Origin: Saccostrea cucullata
Taxonomy: Eukaryota
NCBI RefSeq assembly: GCF_032062105.1
Contig: NW_026926468.1
Coordinates: 1-64,000 of the forward strand
Direction: 5' to 3'
DNA: 64,000 nt
Part shown: positions 12,104 through 60,350 of the stretch, one piece after another
Layout of the letters: every line of letters starts with the position of its first letter
How positions within the stretch are numbered: position 1 is the first letter of the stretch
Position numbers and translations under genes: made by a program
The notes under the pieces: model-generated
What the model saw: only the letters and a program-made list of their open reading frames with translations
What the model was told of the DNA's origin: nothing
Database searches by the model: none

Positions 12104-12620
12104 TAAAACAAGCGGGGCGGGACACTTTGAGAGGGGTGAGAGAGGTCCCAGGGAGTTTTGGTATAAAATAACATTGCACAAGCTCAAAATCTTCTTAAAA
12201 TATCGCCTGGAAAAGATAGTGTTTCATACAGACAGAATGTATAAATTGACGACCTTGAACTTTGACCTTTTGACCTCAAAATCAATAGGGGTCTTCCTTA
12301 GGCCACAGCGAGTTGTTATGTGAAATTTCATTGCAAAAGCTCAAAGGGTTCTCGAGATATCGCGTGGAAACGAAAGTGTTATAACAGACAGAATTTGCAA
12401 ATTTATGACCTTGACCTTTGACCTTTTGACCTCGAAATCATTAGGGGTCTTTTTTAGCCCATAGGGAGTTGCCATGCAAAATTTCATTGCGAAAGCTCAA
12501 AGGGTTCTCGAGATATCGAGTGGAAACTAAAGCGTTACAGACAGACAGAAAGACGGACGGACGGACAGACGGACGGACAGACCCAAATTAATATCCCCCA
12601 CTTTTCAAGCGGGGGACAAA
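12104..12620 (-). mobile_element. Helentron-type non-autonomous element (HINE-like) with ~170-bp tandem units and GACG/GACA microsatellite
   Basis: Tandem TGACCTTTTGACCTC...AGGGGTCTT units, (ACGG/ACAG)n at 12536-12582, and terminal hairpin TCCCCC...GGGGGA followed by an A run. Confidence 0.8.
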
Positions 12621-12633
12621 AAGAGAACACTTT

Positions 12634-30203: not shown

Positions 30204-31152
30204 ATGACTAGTAAAACTTTTGTATTTTTGGTACTTTATACACATTCTGTTTTTTCTGCAGAAGGTCCATGTGGGTAAGACTTTTTTTTTTTTTTTTTTT
30301 TTTTTTTAACTTATTTATTAAAAAAAATCTTTTATACTGTTTTATTACATGTAGGAGTAAAATTGAATTACAGAAAAGACTTCTTTAAGGGATGTTGTGC
30401 TAACACATATTGGAATTCTGAGATCGCGGAATGTGTCAGTAAGTTATTGTCAATCTCAAATATTTTTGACAACATTTAACATAGAGTAACTTCTTAGAAT
30501 GTATTTTTGTTTCATTTCGTAGGATGTCCTTCTGGGTACTTAGGACTAAATTGTAGCATTCCTTGTGAATATCCCTTCTTTGGAGATCGTTGTCAAAGCA
30601 TATGTTCTTGCAGAAGCAGCCTCTGTGATAAAGTAAAAGGATGCATTCCTCTAAATGGTACATATAAGGTGCATTATTCAAATTTAACATGTTCGAGCGT
30701 TGAAAACAACATATTAATTTTTATCCCTTGAAACTTTGGTAATTATTTTTTTAATAATTAGATAACAACTAAATAAATAAAATTCTTTGAATACTGCACC
30801 CATACCATTTTTAGAATAGATTGAAACTAGGTTTGAATATGCATAATAACATCAGGCCATCAATTGAAGCTGAATATTATAAAGTTGAAAACGTCAACGA
30901 TATATTTTTGAATTGATTGTCGCAACAGTTCTTTCATTTTGCTTCATATACCCACCAACACAACACAGTAACAGGAAATATATCGATTTGTTGGAAAACT
31001 TTATCTGCGAAACATTAAAAATTATTTTCAGGAAAAGCCATGCACTTTAAATACTTGTATTTTTAGAAACCCTAGAGTACATAATTGACAATATCAATGA
31101 ACTTCTTACAGAATACGTTTTCAGAAAACCAGTAACACCGCATGCAAAGTAA
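30204..31152 (+). CDS. Small secreted Cys-rich EGF-like protein (MEGF10/SCARF-like). Exons 30204-30274, 30374-30438, 30523-30657 and tentative 31067-31152
   Basis: GT-AG introns with consistent phases 2,1,1 give MTSKTFVFLVLYTHSVFSAEGPCG/KDFFKGCCANTYWNSEIAECVR/CPSGYLGLNCSIPCEYPFFGDRCQSICSCRSSLCDKVKGCIPLNE/TLEYIIDNINELLTEYVFRKPVTPHAK*. The last exon is less certain. Confidence 0.8.
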
Positions 31153-33672
31153 TTGAATTTTTTTATTGGCGAAGTAGATATTTATGATTCTAAATTATCT
31201 GCGATTTTATTGAACTTTAAATGTTCTTGTATAAATGGCGCGTTTAAACGTGTAAAAGTCTTAACACTTGATGCTTTTGATTGTGATACAAATTTCTTAA
31301 AACTCCTTTTCGTTAAGTAGTAGCAACAACCTTTTTGAAAGATTTGCCAAGTAAAACTAGGTTTCTTCTTCCAATTTTGTGTTGTTAATGATTTCAAAAG
31401 AAGTTGAGGAAGATGCTTTACAGTACTTTTCTTAAAACCCGTTTTGTATTTTTGTTACGTGCAAGTACTTGTTACCTCCTATCCAATTCGATTATTAGGA
31501 ATTCTAAAAAAGAAACTTAAAAATGATTACCCCTTTATAGCAGTTGCAACCCAAACTCAAAATTGTTTTAGCTATATTGAACAGATGATATATGATCAAC
31601 TCGTTACTTTTTAAAAGAAATAGCAAAGGCGACAAAGTCTGGAGGACATGAAAACTGATTGGTAATAGTTCAGCATTATATTTATTAATCAAATGTTGTT
31701 ATCGATACCGCACACGCTATGGAGGACAGTTTCTCAATATACGACTCTATAAAAAACACTCAACCTAACCAAATAAGATAATTTACGGATGTTTATAAAA
31801 ACATGAAGGTATTGTGTACCATCTTAACTCATGATCAATTGTTGGGATTAGTAGGGAAACAAACAGTGAAAAATGGGACTAGAGTATATACTTTTATTTC
31901 ATCGATAAAATTAATTCTAAATTGAGTAGATTGTACATTATCTATACTTTTGCTTTAATGTAGTATTTTACTAAAAAATTTCTTCTTATAAAACAAATTT
32001 GAAGTTAGAAAACTGTTTAAGTGAGGATGTACACCTTCAGTAAATATTATCGGACTCATGGCTAATAATTAGGCATGTCATAATTCTTTCATTTTCAAAG
32101 TGAAAGAATTAGGCGAAAGGGTTAATTAGGTGATAATTTTTTGTCTTGATCCCGATCATCGCGCCTTATTCTGAAAAAAAGTCTGATTGTTCTAAAATTT
32201 GAAAATCCGGATGTTACATTTTTAATGACATTTTTGTCTTATGAAAAACCAAATATTAGGCGAATTTAGTTTGGATCACTTCGAATTCCAGGAGTTTGCC
32301 AGTTGATGTTACCTAAAACATTAATTGGAACTATCAGAATAATGAACCGAGTCCAGACACCCTCCTTCCAAAAACAATGAATAATAACAAATAAAAAAGA
32401 TTAAAAACTTTCCCAAAAGCAGAAAGATTTCTAACAATTATGTGTAAGATTTTATTTTCATCAATAAACACGGGATGACTGCACTAAAAGACATGCAAAA
32501 TTTGCAACAATATAAACTTTCGAAACAAACATTTTCTTTTAAGTGCAGAAATGGACATCTAGTCTACAATTTTACGTAATCACAATAATTCAAAGTACTG
32601 TTTTCTCAGGCGGGATGATATGAAATGATAATGTGTACTGACTATCATCAAGTAAGTTCATAGAGAAGTTAACTCCCTTTGTAAATGCACATCCTTTATT
32701 TAGTTCCAGTGACAGCAACATGATGACGTGGCATGATGTGATGTGATGTGATTTACTGTAAATACATAGAAAACATGTATAAATATTTGATATTACACAT
32801 AAAACACATACTCAGCGATTGTCAAATTAACATCACTCTGATTATAAATAAATGCTATATGCTCTTTGTAAACAACACTGTTACAAAGAACATTTTAAAT
32901 AAAATTTTAAATATTGCACATGTACCCTAGTAAATTAGTACATATGAAATTTATATTACTGTCAAATCACACAATTTCAAAAGATTACTAGAAAATGCTC
33001 AACAAAATATATGATTATTACTGAGTGCACATGCGCCAAATAATTTCATACCAAAAGTCACAGAAGTCTTTAATTTTCAATATCAAATTACAAATATCAA
33101 CCTATTATGGCAAAAATTCCCTTCACATAGTCATCCAATCAAAATCGTTCATATGAACTTTCCAACATATCCGTAAAAATTACACCTTAACAGGTAAACA
33201 GTGAACACCTTGTAAACATACAATTTATAACAATTTTGCACGTCAAAATTTCTTCTGCAACAATATACAAAAAGATTTCATGCTTAACTTACCAACTTAG
33301 AAGTTTTCTCTCATGGAAAAGTTGAAGACAAACATGATAATCAGCACAGTGACTAGTAAACACTGGTAAACAATTTCTACTGTTGTAAAAATCTCGTGCT
33401 CCCGCGAAAATTATAATATTGGAACCAAATCCGGAAAAGTCTAACACTCAAACCAAATCCGGAAAAAAATGTTTCGTACAATGTTAAATTTGCTGTTACA
33501 AATGAAAACGCCCATTTTTACGGACTTTATACATACTAAGCGCATGTTAATCTATTGCTCTCATTTTAACAATAATTGTATATTTGAATTAGAAATGTTG
33601 TGGTAGAAGAAGATTTATAGACAAACATGCGCTCGCGGTTTAAAAGAGAAGAAAAATGTTTCTTCTTAAACT

Positions 33673-33760: not shown

Positions 33761-34739
33761 TGTAAAAAGTGATAATTTTCCTCAGGTAACATTGTGAATA
33801 CTAAATACACGTGACTTAGCATGTTCGTGCGAACTAGATGCTAAAAGCAGAGCTTATTATTATCATTTTTATTATTTTGAGAGAGAGAGAAATATGGCAG
33901 GAGAAAACACGTGGGAATAAATAGTTTATATACAAACTTATAAGATATGTATTAGCGTGTGTACAAGAATGTATAATAATACAAAAGTATTATAATAATA
34001 ACACAAAAGTATTATAATACTTGCATTATACTACAAATTTCATCGTGTATACCGGCTTTGATCGAATGAGTTATATTGTCAGGCCTCGATTTAAGATATT
34101 CTTTACCTACATTGACGGGGTTCATGTTGTTAATTACGTTTTAAACCTTTGTAAATACTGAATATATTATGTACTTGTCCGATCGAAATAAATGGAAAAA
34201 AGTTATCTCTTTTTATTTATACATGAAAGATAAAAAACAGGATTCATTATCAAAGTCCATATAACGATACAAAATCGAAGGAGAGCAAACACGGAACTCC
34301 TAATTGTTATTCATCGAGTCTAATTTTAGATCCATCCTTACGATGTCGGCTCAGCTTCTCATTCATACAAACTGTTCAATCAAGGGCAGATATATGTTAG
34401 TGTAAATTCTCTTTATTTGGAAAACATTACGAAAAAAAAAACAGAGAATAAGTTATAATTATTTCATTCCAAAATTATTTTTATGATTTAAATTTCATGC
34501 CATATGGACAGACTTCTGTAGCAGATATACATGTACATGTACAAAAGTGAAATTAAATAAAAAAATAAAAGCTACAGAACCAATTGAAAAAGACCCTAAA
34601 TTCAACGTTAAGTGCAGTCATCCTTTACATGACAGAAAATAAGCAATATTACTAATAAATTTTGTACAAAGTGAAAGAAGTAAACTTTTCTTTTGATGAA
34701 ATGTTCACATGCAATAAACAATCGATCTGTTCTCGTTAC

Positions 34740-37700
34740 TCATACAATTTGCTTCAACATCTTTTTTGTTCCTGCAAAATAAATATGGTTTTTAAGATAT
34801 CGGCAAAGAGAGAAAAAAAAAACGTTTAAGAAACAAATGCACCATTTAATATGTTGCAAAGAATCAAAGGCCGCATACCTTTGAAATAGAAGCAAACGGC
34901 ACCGACTCCAGTAAAGATTAATACTGATAAGGTGATGTACACAATGAATTTGGCATCTCCCGTTCCATTGTTACATTAAATAAAAGTTTGTTTTATTATT
35001 AATCTTTAACAGAAATAAAGAATTTCAAAACAACATAGTAATTTTCTCAGAACATACCTGTCATTTTCAGTCACAGTTTTCTTTTTCTCAATTGAATGAT
35101 TATAATTATCAGTGGTAGTTGTAATTTCAATGTCGTCAAAGTCATATGCATTTACATCCCGTTTTAGTCGGTGTTGCCAATCCGATGAGTTTCCAGGATT
35201 TCTTTTAGTGACAAGAGCGATAACATGTCGAGTAATGAATGTTATTTTTTGAAGACCAATTGATTTAATTGATTCAAAACAAGTGGTATCTACAAATAAC
35301 GAAACATCTTATTATCTAATTATTTAGAGTTTAGTTTAGCACACGTGTCCGTGGTATCTGTCTTTCGCCTTTAAGGATACACCAAAGGCTTTTTTCAAGA
35401 TTTTTGTCAATTTTGAGATTTTTGGCTAAGAAAACAATGCTAATCACTGCTTTATAATGGATGGAAAATTCTTGCTGATTATTAAATGGTTTTCTAATTA
35501 TTTAACAATAATCAAACATAAACACTAACACATGTGAATGTGCCGTTATTGAAGCTTCTGATTTGGTCTGTAACTGCCTGCTTCTGAAAGGAGCAATAAA
35601 TCACTGTGACCACTTGGGGAATTCTTCACTAGCCACACAGAGGCTATCAGTAATTAAACTACAGGGACTCTAGATTTAGGGAAGGAGATCTAACAGGTCA
35701 CTAATGACCATGAAATAGGAGGTGGAGCTTAGCTCTTGCCATTTTGCCGGGAAATCTTTCTGATTCAGAATTGAACCTATTTTACTTCATTAAAAGCACC
35801 TAAATATCCCATTCTTGTGAATATGCATAGGAAATATGGATAAAGGTATCCAAAGCTGAATCTCCGAGGTGTCATATATTTCCAGCTTTGGCAGACTTTG
35901 TTGTGTAATGGGTTTTTGCCCTCTACTGTAAAGTAAGATCAGACAGTTGGTGGTATTATTTGAAAGGATTCAGCTCCCTTATTATTATTGACCAATTTCT
36001 CTGAAAACTGGCCAGAATGTGTCTCAAATGTGTTTTCACAAAACCGTATCTCAGATTTTTGATATCTTGCTCAGTTCTCGAATTATTTGGGGAAATGTAG
36101 AATTAGGCTAATAAATTGGTAACATTGAAAGACAAATGGATGTAACTTTTGAATAAGAAGATTTATCAAAAATCTGAGATACGGTTTTGAAGTTCAATCT
36201 TTAGTCTACATTGAGGCAAAATTTTGACTTTGAGAGGTTACAAAAAAGTTGATTTATAAAATATAAATGCACTAATATTTACATTAAAATATTAATAAAT
36301 TTTTAGTAAGATAAAATTGAAAATTTAAATTAAGATCATTAAATAGTGAATTTAACAAGCTTTCAAATGATATATACTTTTAATATGTTATCTTTGTTAA
36401 TGAAAGAATTACAAGCAAATTAAATTTTGCCCTTTGGAAACCTTTGGTGTATCCTTAAATCTAAATGTCACCATACCTTTTTTATATATATACTGCAGTA
36501 ATAAATTATCTAGGAATACTCTGCAAGCATTCAATTCTCTTTCAATTATTTTGATATCCTCATTAAAAATTTGTGCCCGTCATTTGTTTCAAATTCATAT
36601 TTTTTCTTTTTAATCATGCATTTAGATTCACCTGACCGAACAAAGGATCGACAAATACTAGTCATGTATTTCTATGTCTGCAGAATAAACGTATTCCCCA
36701 TTTATTTTTCATTTAAAATGATAGCAAACGATAGGGTTTGAAGACATAACAAACCAGTGCTCGATTTCGTACAGAATGATGCACTTTAGATATATTTCAT
36801 GGTTCAATGTATTTGACATCACATCATGTTTTGATGAAGAATTTAAGAAAAAAAAGAATTCGTACCCATGTCATTACAAAGATGTAAAGGCTTTTTGATC
36901 GTTTTCATTGAAAAAGGCATTAGTGAGTTTACTCTGCATTGTGTACATGTATGTGTTTTAGATAAAGGGAGAGATGCAAGCAAACTTTTCACCGAGACTT
37001 AGCTAAAGATGCTTTTTGTGACTATTTGTTCTATAAGTACAGGTATTTTTTTTTAAAATTAGGTTAAAATCATTGATAGGTATTCTTTGTTTTATAGATT
37101 AAAAAATAATAAAACTTTAATGGTATAAAAACGACTTACATGTTATCGATTCATTAGAATAATAATGGAATGGGCACTCTGAACATCGGATATTATAATC
37201 TTCCACAACACGACCTACTCCTTCGTTGAACTGAGCACAACACTTTCCTACAAAATAAATATCAAATAATACAGCATCGTTCATTTTCCATGTGAAAATT
37301 CCGGATCCTTTCTAAAAATATTTTAGATATGTCATTGGTCTTCCATACGCTAGAAAGAGACTCTTTATGGAAATTGAGAAAATTATTTGATATCATTGTT
37401 GTAATGTTGTGAGAGAGAGGTAAAAGAACACGTCTGTCTAGTTTACTAACTATTTATTAAGTGATGATCAGATTGAACATATTCCCATGCATATGATAAT
37501 GATTGACAACAGATGATATTAGGGAGAGGAACTTTATCGTGAGAACTGATAACGGCAGAGAGCAGTGCTTGATTGAAAATAAACATTCTGATGCTGGCTT
37601 GATAATTATTAATTACAGATTGACAGATTTAATTAAGAGTATAAACATTACAAAGGTATCAATATAACTTTATTTATTTGAGATCATTGCGAATCATATT

Positions 37701-38039
37701 CAAAGAAAATGAGGTTCAACTGATGATATTCTTCAGATGTTAATGTTTAAATTTTCATAAAAAAAAAAAATAGAAAATGGAGCAAGGAGTTAAGGAAAAA
37801 ACAAACAGAAATTACATACCGATTTAAATTTGCATACCTGAGATTAAATCCCGCGGAGCACAAACTTCAGTGAGTTTGTTTCCATACCGCAAGCAGTGAT
37901 ACACTAACGGATCCTTGGAACAGGAATCGTGGATATCTTCACACTTTTTTTCCTCTGACTTTCTTCTCATACTCTCTGTGTCGAAAGGACAATCAGTCAC
38001 TATTTCAACAGTCTTTACTGTTTCTTTGCATACATCTTC
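34740..38039 (-). CDS. Cys-rich type I membrane protein. Exons 38039-37838, 37247-37140, 35289-35058, 34973-34879, 34771-34740; first exon unresolved
   Basis: Phase-consistent open exons: EDVCKETVKTVEIVTDCP...YHCLRYGNKLTEVCAPRDLISG/KCCAQFNEGVGRVVEDYNIRCSECPFHYYSNESITY/TTCFE...HRLKRDV...END S/NNGTGDAKFIVYITLSVLIFTGVGAVCFYFK G/TKKMLKQIV*. The TM exon acceptor is TG, not AG. Confidence 0.8.
35375..36454. mobile_element. Kolobok-like MITE in an intron
   Basis: TTAA|GGATACACCAAAGG ... CCTTTGGTGTATCC|TTAA: perfect 14-bp TIR with TTAA TSD. Confidence 0.9.
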
Positions 38040-41541: not shown

Positions 41542-44500
41542 GTAAATGAACAGTTGCCACGCAGACTTTGCAAGTTTTGATTAGAGTAGGACTAGTTGTA
41601 TTATAGGCAAGTTGTTTTGGAATAGGACACATATTCTAAAGGTAAAGTGTCTTTCGGCGAACTGTCTTACCTTCTCGCGTATACATAACCTCAAAAGTAC
41701 ATAGCATCCTGTTTGACCTCAGGGTCCACGCAGCTTTTTTTTTTTAAATCAGTTGCAAGTGAAAAGTCAATAAACCAATGCTTAATGCCTATATCATCTC
41801 CATCTTTGCAAAAAATCCTAACACCACTCCCAGTTCCAATGCCTATATTTTTTCATACGTATGCATTTAAATCCTCTAAAAGTGTTATAACAACATAAAT
41901 CAAACTGAACTGCTCTCCGGTTCGCCGTTACGTAATCAAACGTCACCATTTTTCTTGTGTTGTGTTAACCTCTTTCCCATTTACACCCCCTACTAATGTG
42001 TTCTGAACCTTTCATTTTTCTGTCTTCTGCAAATTATAAATCCCGATGAGTTCAGAGTAGCTCGGGCAGTGGCTCTGGCGAAAGTTAAGGAGTCTACAGC
42101 GAGATAGATAACATTATTCACGGAAATGTGGCTAGGAATCGAAGTGACTAGCACGTAGAGACATGGTAAACAGAAAAGTTATGTTGCATTTCAGTTTTCC
42201 CCACCCTATATTTTTCTGTATAAAAATGTATTTCAATCAATCTCTCTTGAATTCATTCAAAATTAAATAAGTATTCACTATGATACAATTTTCTGTAGTC
42301 ATGAATTAAAATTTCTCTTTGGACAATTTTTTTTTGCATGGGAATTGGGACTTTATTTCTAGGCGTCAGATTAGCAATTGGGGCACCAACATGACTTTCA
42401 CTGACAAATCAGCTGAATGAGAATTGCATTATGGGTTACTGGGAATACTACAGAATTTTACTCTCAAGAAAATGAAAATTAAATCTTATGGCGATTGAAA
42501 GGCACAAAAGACAATTTTTCTATATAATTCGTAAATGAAAAGCATTTTTATTCTATTATTTCCAGGCTCACAATGACAAAAAACTCATTTGTTAAATAAA
42601 GGGTGGAAGTCGAGGTTTCTCAAAGTCAAACTGCAAATTTATGCGATTTGCTTCTGTATTAATTCCTTTCTTGTACTATCGGTGAATACAATTGGCTTGT
42701 GGATTCCCTGGCCAAAACACGTGATCACGAGTATAGTTAGGAAAAAAATGTTTTGTCCATTTAAATTCATAAGAGATGCTGCTCGTGATTATTACCCTTA
42801 AAGCGCTGTTGTTCTGAACTTAACACAAACTACATTTTATTAAATATATTTTTTCTAGTTAACAATTACAAATAAAAAACGCCCGTGACATTTTCATAGT
42901 TTCTAATCTTTGTATTGATTTTATAAGAACATTTTTTTTATTTTGCGCTCCATTGACATGATCACAGATTGACCTGAAACACGTGTTTGAAGTAAGATAT
43001 AAACACCTATTTGGTGTAAAGGTTGCTTCAACGATTAGTCAGTTGCTCGTTGTCAGATCCTCTATGCACATGAATAACAATAAATATGGCCAAATAAAGC
43101 AAACAAAGGTTTGTCAGTGTAGATGACATTACACATTTTTTAACCAGAGTATCGGTCGCTAGTGAGCTCTAATTTTCGCCGTAAAGTTTGATAAGATATA
43201 TTGGTATCCCCCCCCCCCCTTGAGCCTACCTTTTCTGTTGAAAATCACGGAAGTCTTTCAGAAAGGTCTGGAAACACATTTGTGAGCCAATGAAAAGAAA
43301 ATTTGTTCTTGTAAAAGTTTTTTTGGTTAAATCAAAGTTATAATGAAAACAACTAGTGCAAATTGTAACGGGAACCGTTACAGATGTTCCCCAAGCGCTC
43401 CCAAACTCCCTTTTGGTGCCATATTCCCTCTAAGCTTCATTAAATAAGACAAACTCTATGCATTTGAGAATTTAACAACTTTTACCCAGAAGTGCACCAC
43501 GTTCATTCAAATTTTAGCATCGCACGCAAGCGCATGTTAATGCATGTTCGTAACGACCATATCATCTTGTCTATACAATTTTATTTTTGTCTATAATATA
43601 TCCCAAAAATTATGGTTCAATAAGATATGATAAATAAAGATTTACTGACAATTTCAGTTTAGTGTGCCCATTAAGTTTTTCGAGACAAGCGCTTTGTCCG
43701 CGATTTTACAGGACAACCCTTGCATAATGGATATCAGCATTTCATTTATATATTTAAAAAGAAATGTTGATCTTCAAAACAAGAATGTTAGATTAAGTAT
43801 GCGCAGTTGCATTGTCGGCGAAACTTAAAATCCAAAGCCATAATGAAAAAAAAAATACCTGTGTAAATCTCTTTTGATTTCCATAGTGCCTAGACTCGAT
43901 GACGCAAAGTTGCATTCCTAGGACAAGGACAATTGTGAGGGTTTTCATTAAGGTCAAGAAACCTGACATCTTCGTTGTTGAAAGCTTTTTCTGGCGTTTA
44001 TTGACCCGATGCTAGAAAGGTTGGCCTTGTAATCTTTAGTAAAAATATCAATTTAATAAAGAATAAAATAAAGAATCGATCGTTTGATTAAACTTTTTTG
44101 ATCCTTATTATGTCTTTTCATGCAAATATTATTATTTTTTCTTTTTAAGGAAAAGGAATTTTTAAAAAAACATTTTCTTTTGTATGAGCAAAAAGCAGTA
44201 CACAGTGGATATTAAAATTAAGACATATGAAAATGAAGTTGAATAAAGCTGTTTGTAACTCACCCATCGAGCAAATAATCTGTTATGTTTGAAAACCACA
44301 CACTATTCAAACAGCATACCTAAATTCCATGCTTACACACAATCGCAGAACGATAGCTATTAAGAAATGTTGCAATGTTTACTTAATGTTTGAAAAGATA
44401 TATAGAATTAAATGAATAATTGAGAGAACTAATTGATTATCATTAATTATTTTATTTATATTATTATTATTATTTAGCATACCCGGTAGTCTACTTATTT

Positions 44501-57616: not shown

Positions 57617-58665
57617 TAAGGACTTCTAGGCCGATGTGTACCGATGTTTGGGCATCTTTAACACCACGGATAACCACCGGTCTTCGGCTACCAGCCGGGA
57701 AATGTGACCTAGGCATAAAGAATCGGCATTTGTTTTTCGTGCTGCCCTTCTTCTTTTCTTAAATCGTATTTAACATCGGAAACCATTCCACGACGAATGT
57801 TGATTGTATTTGCAATATGCTACAATGTATATCCCTCATTCCTCATTGACACAAAAATATTTTTCCCATCAGAATTCATTTTTTTCTTTTTATTCTGCCC
57901 TTTTTGAAACTGTAAACAATCTATTATAGTGAAGATGACGGTCTAGCTTCCGGACATTACGTAACAAAAAATGTGGGAGAAAATCCAAAATACTAAAAAT
58001 AGAACAGACAACAACAACGTATGGAGGTAAACAAGAATTTAATTCTACGGTAATGTTTTCATTCGCCGCCATTTTGATTATTTCAGGTGACCTATGTCTG
58101 TACCTACCTTCTTCCCCCCTCCCCCCCAACTTCGTTTAAGTAACTTCACATTGGTATTTCCATCGATACCTAATGGGATTCGCTCCTGTTTCTGCTTGAT
58201 GCACTATTCCTCCATCTGAAATGTCTGTTTTCATAGTTATATTTGACATTTTTTTTCTCTTCGTTGTAATACTAAAAAAGCTTGAAACGTAAAAATGTTA
58301 TGTAAGGTATATTTTACTATAAATTGTTGTTGTAAACTGATACGAAATGAAGAGCATTAGAGAAACTGTTAAAGACCGCATACCTTTAATGCACATAAGC
58401 TTCCCTACCGATAAGGTTTTTAAATAAATGTTAGAGCTGTTATTAGAATAAGACATTTAAATCTGTTTTGGTCTAAAGTTTTTTTATCATGTTATCTTAA
58501 AGTGCAAATGTGCAGCCATGTTAAAAATGACAGAACGCCACGGTAAGAACATTACTTCAAATGCCGTATATCAATATTTTTTCACCAAATGTAGATCTTT
58601 AGAATAAAAAAGATGTTGAATTCTAATTGTTTTCTTTAGCTTAACATTAACTGCCTTCATTCAAC

Positions 58666-60350
58666 ATGGCGACATCAGAGATACTACAGACAGAGCACAA
58701 GACATAAAACGGTGTCAACTTTGTCCTGGAAAGGACCGGAAATCTGCAGCAGAAATTGTTTGTAGTTCCTGCCATGTCAACCTCTGTAAGGATTGTGTAG
58801 GTCTTCATATGGTTTCTGACCGTAAGGTTAAACATGAAGTTCTTACATTTGAATTCACATCTGAAATCATTGCGCCTCAGTGTAATCAACATGAAGGGCA
58901 AGGGTGTGAAATGTTTTGTGAATCTTGTGGTTCCCCTCTTTGTCCGCAATGTTTATCATCCGATTCTCATACAAATCACAATGTACAACATATTACAGAA
59001 ATTTATAACTCTCGGCAAGAGACGATTAAACAAGATATAAATGAACTGGGAAATAAGATTGCACCTGATTATGAGTCGATAATCTCTAAAATACAGTTAA
59101 TGATAACAAATGTTATCCAAAAACACGGAGAACGAAATCAGTCTATTACTAAATTTGGTGACAGCTGTCACAATCTGATAGATAGTGTTATCAATAGATA
59201 TTTGCAAGATTCAAAACAGATTGAAAAAGAAGACACAGACTCTCTGCTTGCTTTAAAATCAGTGTTTGAGAATCTGCAATCATCACTTCATTCAGCAATA
59301 AATGAAAATGCATCAATTCTAGCTTCCAGAGATTCATCAAAACTTATTCATTACATTTCAAAAAATAAAGAGTTTAGACATGTTCCCTCTAGGGTGGAAC
59401 TGACAGTGCCACAATTCAGTCCAGGTGAACTCACAGAAAAAACATTGTGTCAATTGATGGGTGACATTGAAAAGACAGTTAAAACTTACATTCAGGGATA
59501 TGTCATAAAAGGAATTTCAAGTTCCAGTGTACCACGTAAAAGCTTTCTTGACAAGCCTAGAGTTATAAGAAGTGTAGAAACCTATTTTCACAAAACATTT
59601 GGCATCAAATGTATTCCAAACAAACACCAATTTTATGTCAGTGGTGACAGTGAAATAATCAAGCACATGAACATAGAGGGAGAGGTACTGGAGGACATAA
59701 GCACCGAGCCAGGAGGTATTCTCGACCTGGCAATCAGCAGAGAGGGATTTTTAGTGTATAGCGAGAGCCGGTCAACACGTATCAATATCAGAAAGAATGA
59801 CCAAATAGAATGTCTTATCTCTCCGCAGGAGTGGACTCCACTCTCTATATGTTGCACCATCACAGGTGAATTACTCGTTGCTATGAAATCACTTCAAAAT
59901 AGAATCGCACAAAGTAGAGTGGTTCGCTATTGTGGTTCTGTAGCCACGCAAGAAATAAGATTCGATAATGCAGAACAAGCTTTATACTCATGTCCATTAT
60001 TCATTGAGGAAAACAAAAACCTTGATATAATAGTGAGTGACTCTGGTGAAAAGATAATAGTGGTTGATAGACTGGGCAAATTAAGATTCATCTATGATGG
60101 AAATCTCCAGTCGCAGATGTACAAAACATTTACTCCACGTGGTGTAACAACGAATAGCATATGCCAAATTTTGATTGCTGACCCTAGTAATCAAGTTATA
60201 CATATCATTGACGAGAACGGACAGTTTTTAATGTACATAAAAAAATCCGAATTACAAGAACCATATGATCTCTGTTCAGACAGCGATGATATTTTGTTCG
60301 TTACAGAGTTACGATCTGGCAAAGTGAAAGAATTAAAACTGTTTAGTTAG
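58666..60350 (+). CDS. RING-less TRIM-like protein: B-box, B-box, coiled coil, NHL beta-propeller (TRIM2/3/71-like)
   Basis: Frame open from 58620. AQDIKRCQLC...CSSCHVNLCKDCVGLH...H (B-box 1), CNQH...CEMFCESCGSPLCPQCLSSDSHTNH (B-box 2), heptad region, NHL repeats (PRGVTTNSICQILIADPSNQVIHII). Single coding exon after the acceptor TTCTTTAG at 58639. Confidence 0.9.

Follow-up and report, generated by a model that had tools for sequence, protein, structure and literature searches.

A Saccostrea cucullata gene encodes a cysteine-rich ectodomain of a large oyster family, predicted to be released and possibly acting as a soluble decoy or sensor

Apart from TLRs and lectins, the immune receptors on the surface of oyster cells are poorly defined. 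In one described group of Crassostrea proteins, a "cysteine-rich region" and a membrane helix are followed by TRADD-N, nSTAND3-ankyrin, AIG-GTPase or HEPN tails, in a receptor-like layout of cysteine-rich region, transmembrane segment, DED/alpha-rich region, TRADD-N and variable effector (Kaur et al. 2021, PMC8195603). Here we analyse a gene on the minus strand of a 64,000-nucleotide stretch of Saccostrea cucullata DNA (contig NW_026926468.1, positions 1 to 64,000; the window), which is LOC134271757 and encodes RefSeq protein XP_062609950.1 (P0001, the query). The protein carries a small cysteine-rich domain, a stalk with a furin-type site and, depending on splicing, a membrane helix. Because the same domain heads receptors in the family, the likeliest job of a freed copy would be that of a soluble decoy or sensor, a reading that we place somewhat short of an even chance and that is the best available for this gene.

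The proteins of Kaur et al. and those of the present family are alike in being oyster-expanded type I proteins with an unnamed cysteine-rich ectodomain, and the nSTAND3-ankyrin, AIG GTPase and TRADD-N-like tails of the former also occur on relatives of the query domain. In the parts of PMC8195603 covered here the region is given neither a sequence definition nor a fold, and short-tailed members and convertase sites do not appear; none of the accessions seen there fell in the 20 sequence clusters that were looked up. A term search of the accessible text of PMC8917759, on oyster inhibitor of apoptosis proteins, found neither transmembrane nor signal peptide nor cysteine-rich. On the overlap of tails, the query domain is probably the described "cysteine-rich region". 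The query itself differs in having no intracellular domain, with no DED/alpha-rich region, TRADD-N or effector and 0 Pfam families in P0001 at E 0.01.

Integrin alpha heavy/light chains, the insulin receptor and MET are furin-processed, disulfide-linked two-chain membrane proteins. Anchored paralogs of the query that bear an RxKR motif resemble them, with RxKR inside a cysteine-bracketed ectodomain segment in 15 of 16 cases, but no relation of sequence or fold was found and the query lacks the bracketing cysteines. Soluble TNFR, IL-1R2 and osteoprotegerin are soluble decoy receptors that arise by shedding or membrane-exon loss; the query may be compared with them as the ectodomain of a receptor-type protein that splicing or proteolysis has separated from its anchor, a comparison offered as a likeness of working and not as homology. 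With membrane-tethered cytokine and growth-factor precursors such as pro-TGF-alpha/HB-EGF, CSF1 and the furin-shed EDA/BAFF, the query shares a stalk after a small disulfide domain, one encoded helix, a short tail and a basic cleavage site; unlike them, it matches no cytokine family in Pfam, EGF and TNF included, and long receptor-like proteins carry the same domain at their head. Ligands of the TNF type have type II topology and a C-terminal TNF homology domain, whereas the order of N-terminal hydrophobic segment, domain and C-terminal helix in the query is not type II, and no TNF Pfam match was found.

The cysteine-rich domain and its relatives

A phmmer search of 1.84 billion representatives returned 627 proteins at E 0.001, counted at 50% clustering, and 169 at 1e-10. 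Family statistics were taken from the best 150 of the 627 matches, a sample biased towards the query's subfamily, and 109 of the 150 were aligned. A named member was present in 14 of the 20 clusters that were looked up, in each case from an oyster (Saccostrea, Crassostrea, Ostrea). The original prediction, which knew the cysteine pattern only from bivalve proteins, was right in expecting a large bivalve family. No paralog of the domain was found elsewhere in the window.

The domain is ~105 residues long, and its conserved core is ten cysteines, each present in 106-109 of the 109 rows, with the YHC and EVCAP motifs and a late Y-x-S also kept. An eleventh cysteine, the first of a CC pair, occurs in 42 of the 109 rows and lacks a compensating partner in most of them (30 of the 42 carry 11 cysteines). 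The query retains its signal segment and all ten core cysteines. AlphaFold2 modelled residues 41-150 of P0001 with a predicted local distance difference test (pLDDT) score of 94-97, and the model of a distant relative, P0150, has the same helix-and-strand layout. Two-copy complex prediction of the domain scored 0.01 and gave no dimer answer.

That the domain belongs to no named family was borne out by each search made. Across the 109 members, Pfam gave no ectodomain family in more than 3; Colipase-like was a weak match in 3 of 109 only, and GF_recep_IV, the best exon match, reached 15.3 bits against a cut-off of 29.5; both were rejected. A PDB sequence search with the family profile gave 8 rows to E 10, all on the helix/tail region. 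Foldseek against PDB returned 0 rows at E 0.001 for both models and the viral fold library returned 0 rows, while VIA-align among 48,161 chains found none at Z 5, with a best Z of 2.1 for the full model and 2.8 for P0150, a domain-rich relative. Brazzein, SP11 and a designed EHEE protein, at Z 2.1-2.3, matched the N-terminal 60 residues only and were set aside as not evidence. The five fold searches thus gave no significant row, known cytokine folds included, although a missing match does not exclude a fold; the fold is unassigned and possibly new. Literature searches, which covered few subscription papers, yielded PMC8195603 as the only relevant paper and found no description of the fold, of short-tailed members or of a cysteine-bracketed furin site.

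The tails of the relatives are the main guide to what the domain may do. In P0087 the domain and helix are followed by nSTAND3 and ankyrin repeats, and in P0122 by BIR; of 17 longer relatives, only these two had a tail that Pfam recognised at E 0.001. A search of long proteins added P0151 (1 of 4123 candidates), in which domain and helix precede FN3 and an AIG1/septin-like GTPase, a cysteine-rich region and a coiled coil; its cluster has 22 members on transcript-sized contigs (1-4 kb), and its sequence suggests an immunity-type GTPase receptor anchored in the membrane. Among the Atlas look-alikes, which were unnamed mollusc clusters, two with abundant nSTAND3 (78 and 92 members) align to the domain with TM-scores of 0.68 and 0.65. 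The tail of P0132 is TRADD-N-like as a lead only (score 0.86), and P0132 had no PDB sequence match. Sub-threshold OTU matches (E 0.008-0.13) occur in the tails of P0144, P0066 and P0068. Since relatives carry signalling and effector tails, the domain is better read as a receptor ectodomain than as a cytokine family, and on its architectures the family looks like one of surface sensors.

P0122 and P0132 have near-identical ectodomains and helices with different tails (BIR versus alpha-rich plus TRADD-N-like), which suggests recent tail swapping or alternative splicing. A clade of P0144, P0066, P0068, P0170 and P0172 combines the ectodomain with a conserved cytoplasmic region that gives the weak OTU-like matches, possibly an inactive deubiquitinase-like tail.

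Exon model, convertase sites and stalk

Used as a query, the first domain exon retrieved one protein at 100% identity, XP_062609950.1, whose record is titled "uncharacterized protein LOC134271757". The gene, thought at first to be hidden, is therefore an already annotated but uncharacterised RefSeq model. Protein searches for alleles or orthologs returned the RefSeq protein only (1 of 6 candidates), and a search for a short fragment including the stalk returned none (0 of 1). P0001 is the sole member of its 90% cluster, no close ortholog surfaced in the searches made, and no paper found by a literature search covering few subscription papers mentions LOC134271757. The gene has the following parts:

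43859..43969, minus strand: exon 1, with the ATG, a hydrophobic signal-peptide-like segment and a short pro-segment ending in dibasic KR, up to a phase-0 GT donor; matches P0001 residues 1-37 at 100%
37838..38039, minus strand: exon 2, first half of the cysteine-rich domain with 6 cysteines and the YHC and EVCAP motifs; GT-AG, phase 0 to 1; identical to the RefSeq model
37140..37247, minus strand: exon 3, second half of the domain (CC, FN, CxxCP and the NES sequon); GT-AG, phase 1 to 1
35370..36459, strand not assigned: insertion in intron 3 resembling a miniature inverted-repeat transposable element (MITE); its terminal inverted repeats are 22 nt long, and an inverted pair of 26 nt lies inside it
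35058..35289, minus strand: exon 4, last domain cysteine, then a cysteine-free stalk with RLKR and the NSS and NHS sequons; phase 1 to 2
32590..32755, minus strand: final exon in the RefSeq model, reached from exon 4 in phase 2, without a membrane helix (best hydropathy 1.07)

Across GT-AG introns, exons 38039-37838, 37247-37140 and 35289-35058 form one continuous reading frame, whose product has 11 cysteines in the predicted pattern, R-L-K-R followed by D at residues 181-185, and the sequons NES, NSS and NHS; the further sequon predicted, NGT, exists only under a non-canonical junction. Re-splicing with the last exon at 32755-32590 reproduces P0001 exactly, and 217 codons are open with no stop or frameshift. 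The five-exon model of the original prediction erred at both ends, missing the signal-peptide exon at 43969-43859 and the RefSeq end on 32755-32590. Its claim that the exons splice in phase holds for the three domain and stalk exons and for the intron between helix and tail, both GT-AG, but the join from exon 4 to the helix needs an AA acceptor. The best 19-residue window in exon 1, from residue 6, has a Kyte-Doolittle hydropathy of 1.95, in keeping with a putative signal peptide. No likeness to paralog tails was seen in the last RefSeq exon.

Two basic sites flank the domain:

43868..43873, minus strand: N-terminal KR, residues 33-34, a candidate proprotein-convertase site before the domain
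35159..35170, minus strand: R-L-K-R, residues 181-184, a furin-type site without the two cysteines that bracket it in the nearest paralogs

At the N-terminal position, [KR]R is found in 54 of the 92 rows that have a residue there (109 rows in all) and in 42 of the first 50, and the full RxKR in 33 of 109. The RLKR fits the furin pattern R-X-K/R-R and lies in low-confidence coil after a signal-like segment, and cleavage is predicted from the motif only; the surrounding stalk is predicted to be disordered, with pLDDT below 60 from about residue 171. Among the 150 proteins, 135 include the C-terminal end of the domain, and 102 of those have a helix by a hydropathy rule. RxKR or RxRR occurs in the stalks of 16 of these 102 anchored relatives, against a mean of 1.3 and a maximum of 6 in 1000 sets of shuffled stalks, so that at the level of sequence the stalk RxKR is a real but minority trait.

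Two cysteines flank the stalk RxKR in 15 of the 16 anchored proteins and in 21 of 26 over all 135, and stalk cysteine counts are even in 93 of 102. The pattern would fit a cut inside a disulfide loop that leaves two chains joined, and because the RxKR sits between two cysteines, cleavage would normally leave the ectodomain tethered. In a midpoint-rooted FastTree tree of 127 complete domains from 153 proteins, all 19 loop-bearing rows fall in the query's half. The clade to which the query belongs, with a local support of 0.948, comprises 8 rows that include a stalk and 2 that end before it; all 8 keep the cysteine pair and 7 carry RxKR. The query stalk has kept RLKR and lost both loop cysteines. 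In P0011, P0023, P0028, P0046 and P0054, four stalk cysteines surround the basic site, and some of these proteins have a cysteine inside the RxKR itself.

The membrane-helix exon and the competing readings

Whether this copy is tethered depends on two further exons:

34879..34970, minus strand: transmembrane-helix exon, homologous to paralog helices; the only frame-keeping acceptor at a pyrimidine tract ends in AA
34740..34771, minus strand: short tail exon, ~10 residues to a TGA in the helix frame, reached from the helix exon through a GT-AG intron

The helix and ten-residue tail of the original prediction are thus encoded, and the helix is shared with paralogs, but its in-frame acceptor is AA and not AG. 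The encoded segment has a best 19-residue Kyte-Doolittle mean of 2.29. When six paralog tails were searched by tblastn against a 3.1-kb region, two matched: the C-terminal 95 residues of P0152 and P0153, the closest full-length paralogs, matched the helix exon at E 2.7e-5 and 0.002, aligning it to their helices. The cytoplasmic tails of the paralogs revealed no downstream exon, the helix exon being the only match under E 0.1. Between 35010 and 34941 each possible acceptor position was tried, and no AG among them keeps the helix frame from exon 4 (phase 2): a cryptic AG at 34956 leads into a different, non-membrane frame, and AGs further upstream lead to an early stop. The acceptor that fits frame, pyrimidine tract and paralog register closes an 87-nt intron with AA, the other four introns being GT-AG. 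An internal GT donor after 34746 is possible within the tail exon; a phase-shifted longer tail would need a frameshift and was rejected as unsupported.

Five splice models were compared: the AA acceptor, intron retention, the cryptic AG at 34956, a skip to 34771 and the RefSeq end. Only the AA-acceptor model has a membrane helix; all four canonical-site models lack one (hydropathy <=1.07). All five end within 17-55 residues of exon 4, and residues 35-184 are common to them all. Membrane tethering of this copy therefore rests on a non-canonical acceptor. Ten public sequencing runs from 7 studies contain 0.12-0.30 of 108 words sampled from 34250-35340, a weak signal, and the one run on record as RNA contains 0.29, where exon 4 by itself would account for ~0.19 (binomial p ~0.01), which hints at more than exon 4 being present and fits splicing or intron retention alike.

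We propose that the ten-cysteine domain is the sensing head, outside the cell, of type I membrane proteins whose immune or cell-death tails can be exchanged. Within the subfamily of the query, a proprotein convertase would trim a short pro-segment at KR, and the stalk RxKR within its two-cysteine loop would be cut to give two chains held by a disulfide. This copy has lost the two cysteines of the loop as well as a canonical acceptor for the membrane exon, and with both loop cysteines gone, a free ectodomain is predicted whichever way the transcript splices. The protein would enter the secretory path and be cut after residues 34 and 184, releasing an ectodomain of ~150 residues (35-184; 17.3 kDa before glycans) under every splice option tested, so that the earlier expectation of a released cysteine-rich domain probably stands for this copy. 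The free ectodomain could bind the ligands of the membrane forms, as a decoy or scavenging sensor, by analogy with the soluble forms of vertebrate TNF and IL-1 receptors.

Several points weigh against this proposal. "Sensor" and "decoy" are read from architecture, and the link to the "cysteine-rich region" of Kaur et al., though probable, is likewise one of architecture and not of sequence. Signalling tails are a minority of the sample, most relatives being short-tailed with no tail domain; members with nSTAND3, BIR or TRADD-N-like tails fall outside the query's half of the tree, where the only long tails are those of the AIG1 member and of one unnamed protein. The evidence for the disulfide loop is a pattern in the sequences, and its Fisher test (p 1.5e-9) takes no account of relatedness. 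The AA at the acceptor could reflect an error in the assembly or a rare allele.

The protein could instead be the membrane-tethered or secreted precursor of a cytokine-like ligand, its released domain having a receptor of its own and the KR-flanked subfamily forming a ligand family. Growth-factor and neuropeptide precursors do have a domain flanked by convertase-type sites, and such sites flank this domain on both sides in the subfamily (54 of 92 N-terminal, 16 of 102 in the stalk); the domain is also compact, disulfide-rich and confidently folded, and the query lacks the cysteines that would retain it after cleavage. We nevertheless consider a ligand unlikely, as the same domain heads receptor-like proteins and Pfam places it in no known cytokine family. 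RxKR conservation across relatives had been named beforehand as a point on which the original prediction could fail, and it did so in part: the motif is missing from the stalks of 86 of the 102 anchored relatives, and 15 of the other 16 have it inside the cysteine pair. The ~10-residue tail, offered as a mark of a precursor, is no family trait either, with a median of 47 residues among the 102, 11 of them above 100, several signalling or effector tails, and 10 at <=11 residues, some of which may be truncated models. The tails of the relatives favour a receptor ectodomain over the proposed cytokine-like family.

We give the same low standing to a decaying duplicate in a birth-and-death family, on the way to a pseudogene and with no selected function. 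Decay would account for the AA acceptor, the loss of loop cysteines, a tail well below the 45-58 residues usual in close paralogs, the MITE-like insertion together with broken TLR copies in the same window, and the isolation of P0001 in its 90% cluster with no close ortholog surfaced. The open 217 codons, however, show no stop or frameshift, the signal segment, ten core cysteines, both basic sites and three GT-AG introns are retained, and both loop cysteines are gone together rather than just one; the ten runs from 7 studies that hold 0.12-0.30 of the words, one of them RNA, are a weak further point.

An ordinary short-tailed membrane protein (a co-receptor, adhesion or non-immune surface protein), with the AA an assembly error or tolerated and the furin cut only a maturation step whose halves stay together non-covalently, would agree with the intact helix exon in paralog register followed by a GT-AG intron and in-frame tail, with most relatives being short-tailed membrane proteins, and with the word share of the RNA run (compatible with helix-exon inclusion and equally with intron retention), but we judge it quite improbable, since the RefSeq model avoids the helix exon, the stalk around RLKR is predicted to be disordered and so offers no fold that could keep the halves together, and the immune-type tails of relatives argue against a purely structural role.

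Its at least 627 diverged relatives, its confident model with no solved match and its immune and cell-death fusions make this domain a concrete candidate major lineage-specific recognition module. The cysteine-bracketed furin site would be a testable switch between tethered and released forms, with this gene a natural "released" variant, and residues 35-184 are the obvious first construct for structure and ligand fishing. More speculatively, and in our view very improbably, one new disulfide-rich fold may stand on both sides of signalling in oysters, as the sensor head of receptors with swappable STAND, TRADD-N, BIR, AIG-GTPase or OTU-like tails and as a convertase-matured signal held, once furin has cut, on a single disulfide and freed by reduction, a redox-gated ligand. 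This gene would then be the constitutively released version, and hundreds of diverged copies could form a code for self/non-self or invader recognition, possibly aimed at bivalve transmissible tumours or microbes.

Neighbouring sequence in the window

The genomic neighbourhood had been put forward in support of an immune ligand. TLR-like pieces and a B-box (by Pfam) are indeed present, as is an EGF-like exon by motif only, but TLR, EGF and TRIM families are hugely expanded in oysters, and because of their size adjacency to them is weak evidence. A TLR-like gene at 12531-14369 on the plus strand lies over three broken frames (leucine-rich repeat (LRR), middle piece and TIR) and is a pseudogene or carries assembly indels. 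An LRR piece at 4785-4030 on the minus strand is 79% identical to it, and a helix/TIR-side fragment lies at 62503-62360 on the same strand.

The B-box protein, at 58620-60350 on the plus strand, is a single-frame protein of 576 residues (zf-B_box, E 4e-11); by inspection it likely has a coiled coil and a propeller-type C-terminus, typical of an oyster TRIM-like protein without RING. The EGF-like exon, at 30498-30728 on the plus strand, is of the MEGF/SCARF type by inspection of its cysteine pattern. A non-LTR retroelement remnant at 52339-49846 on the minus strand carries RVT_1 and zf-RVT in two frames.

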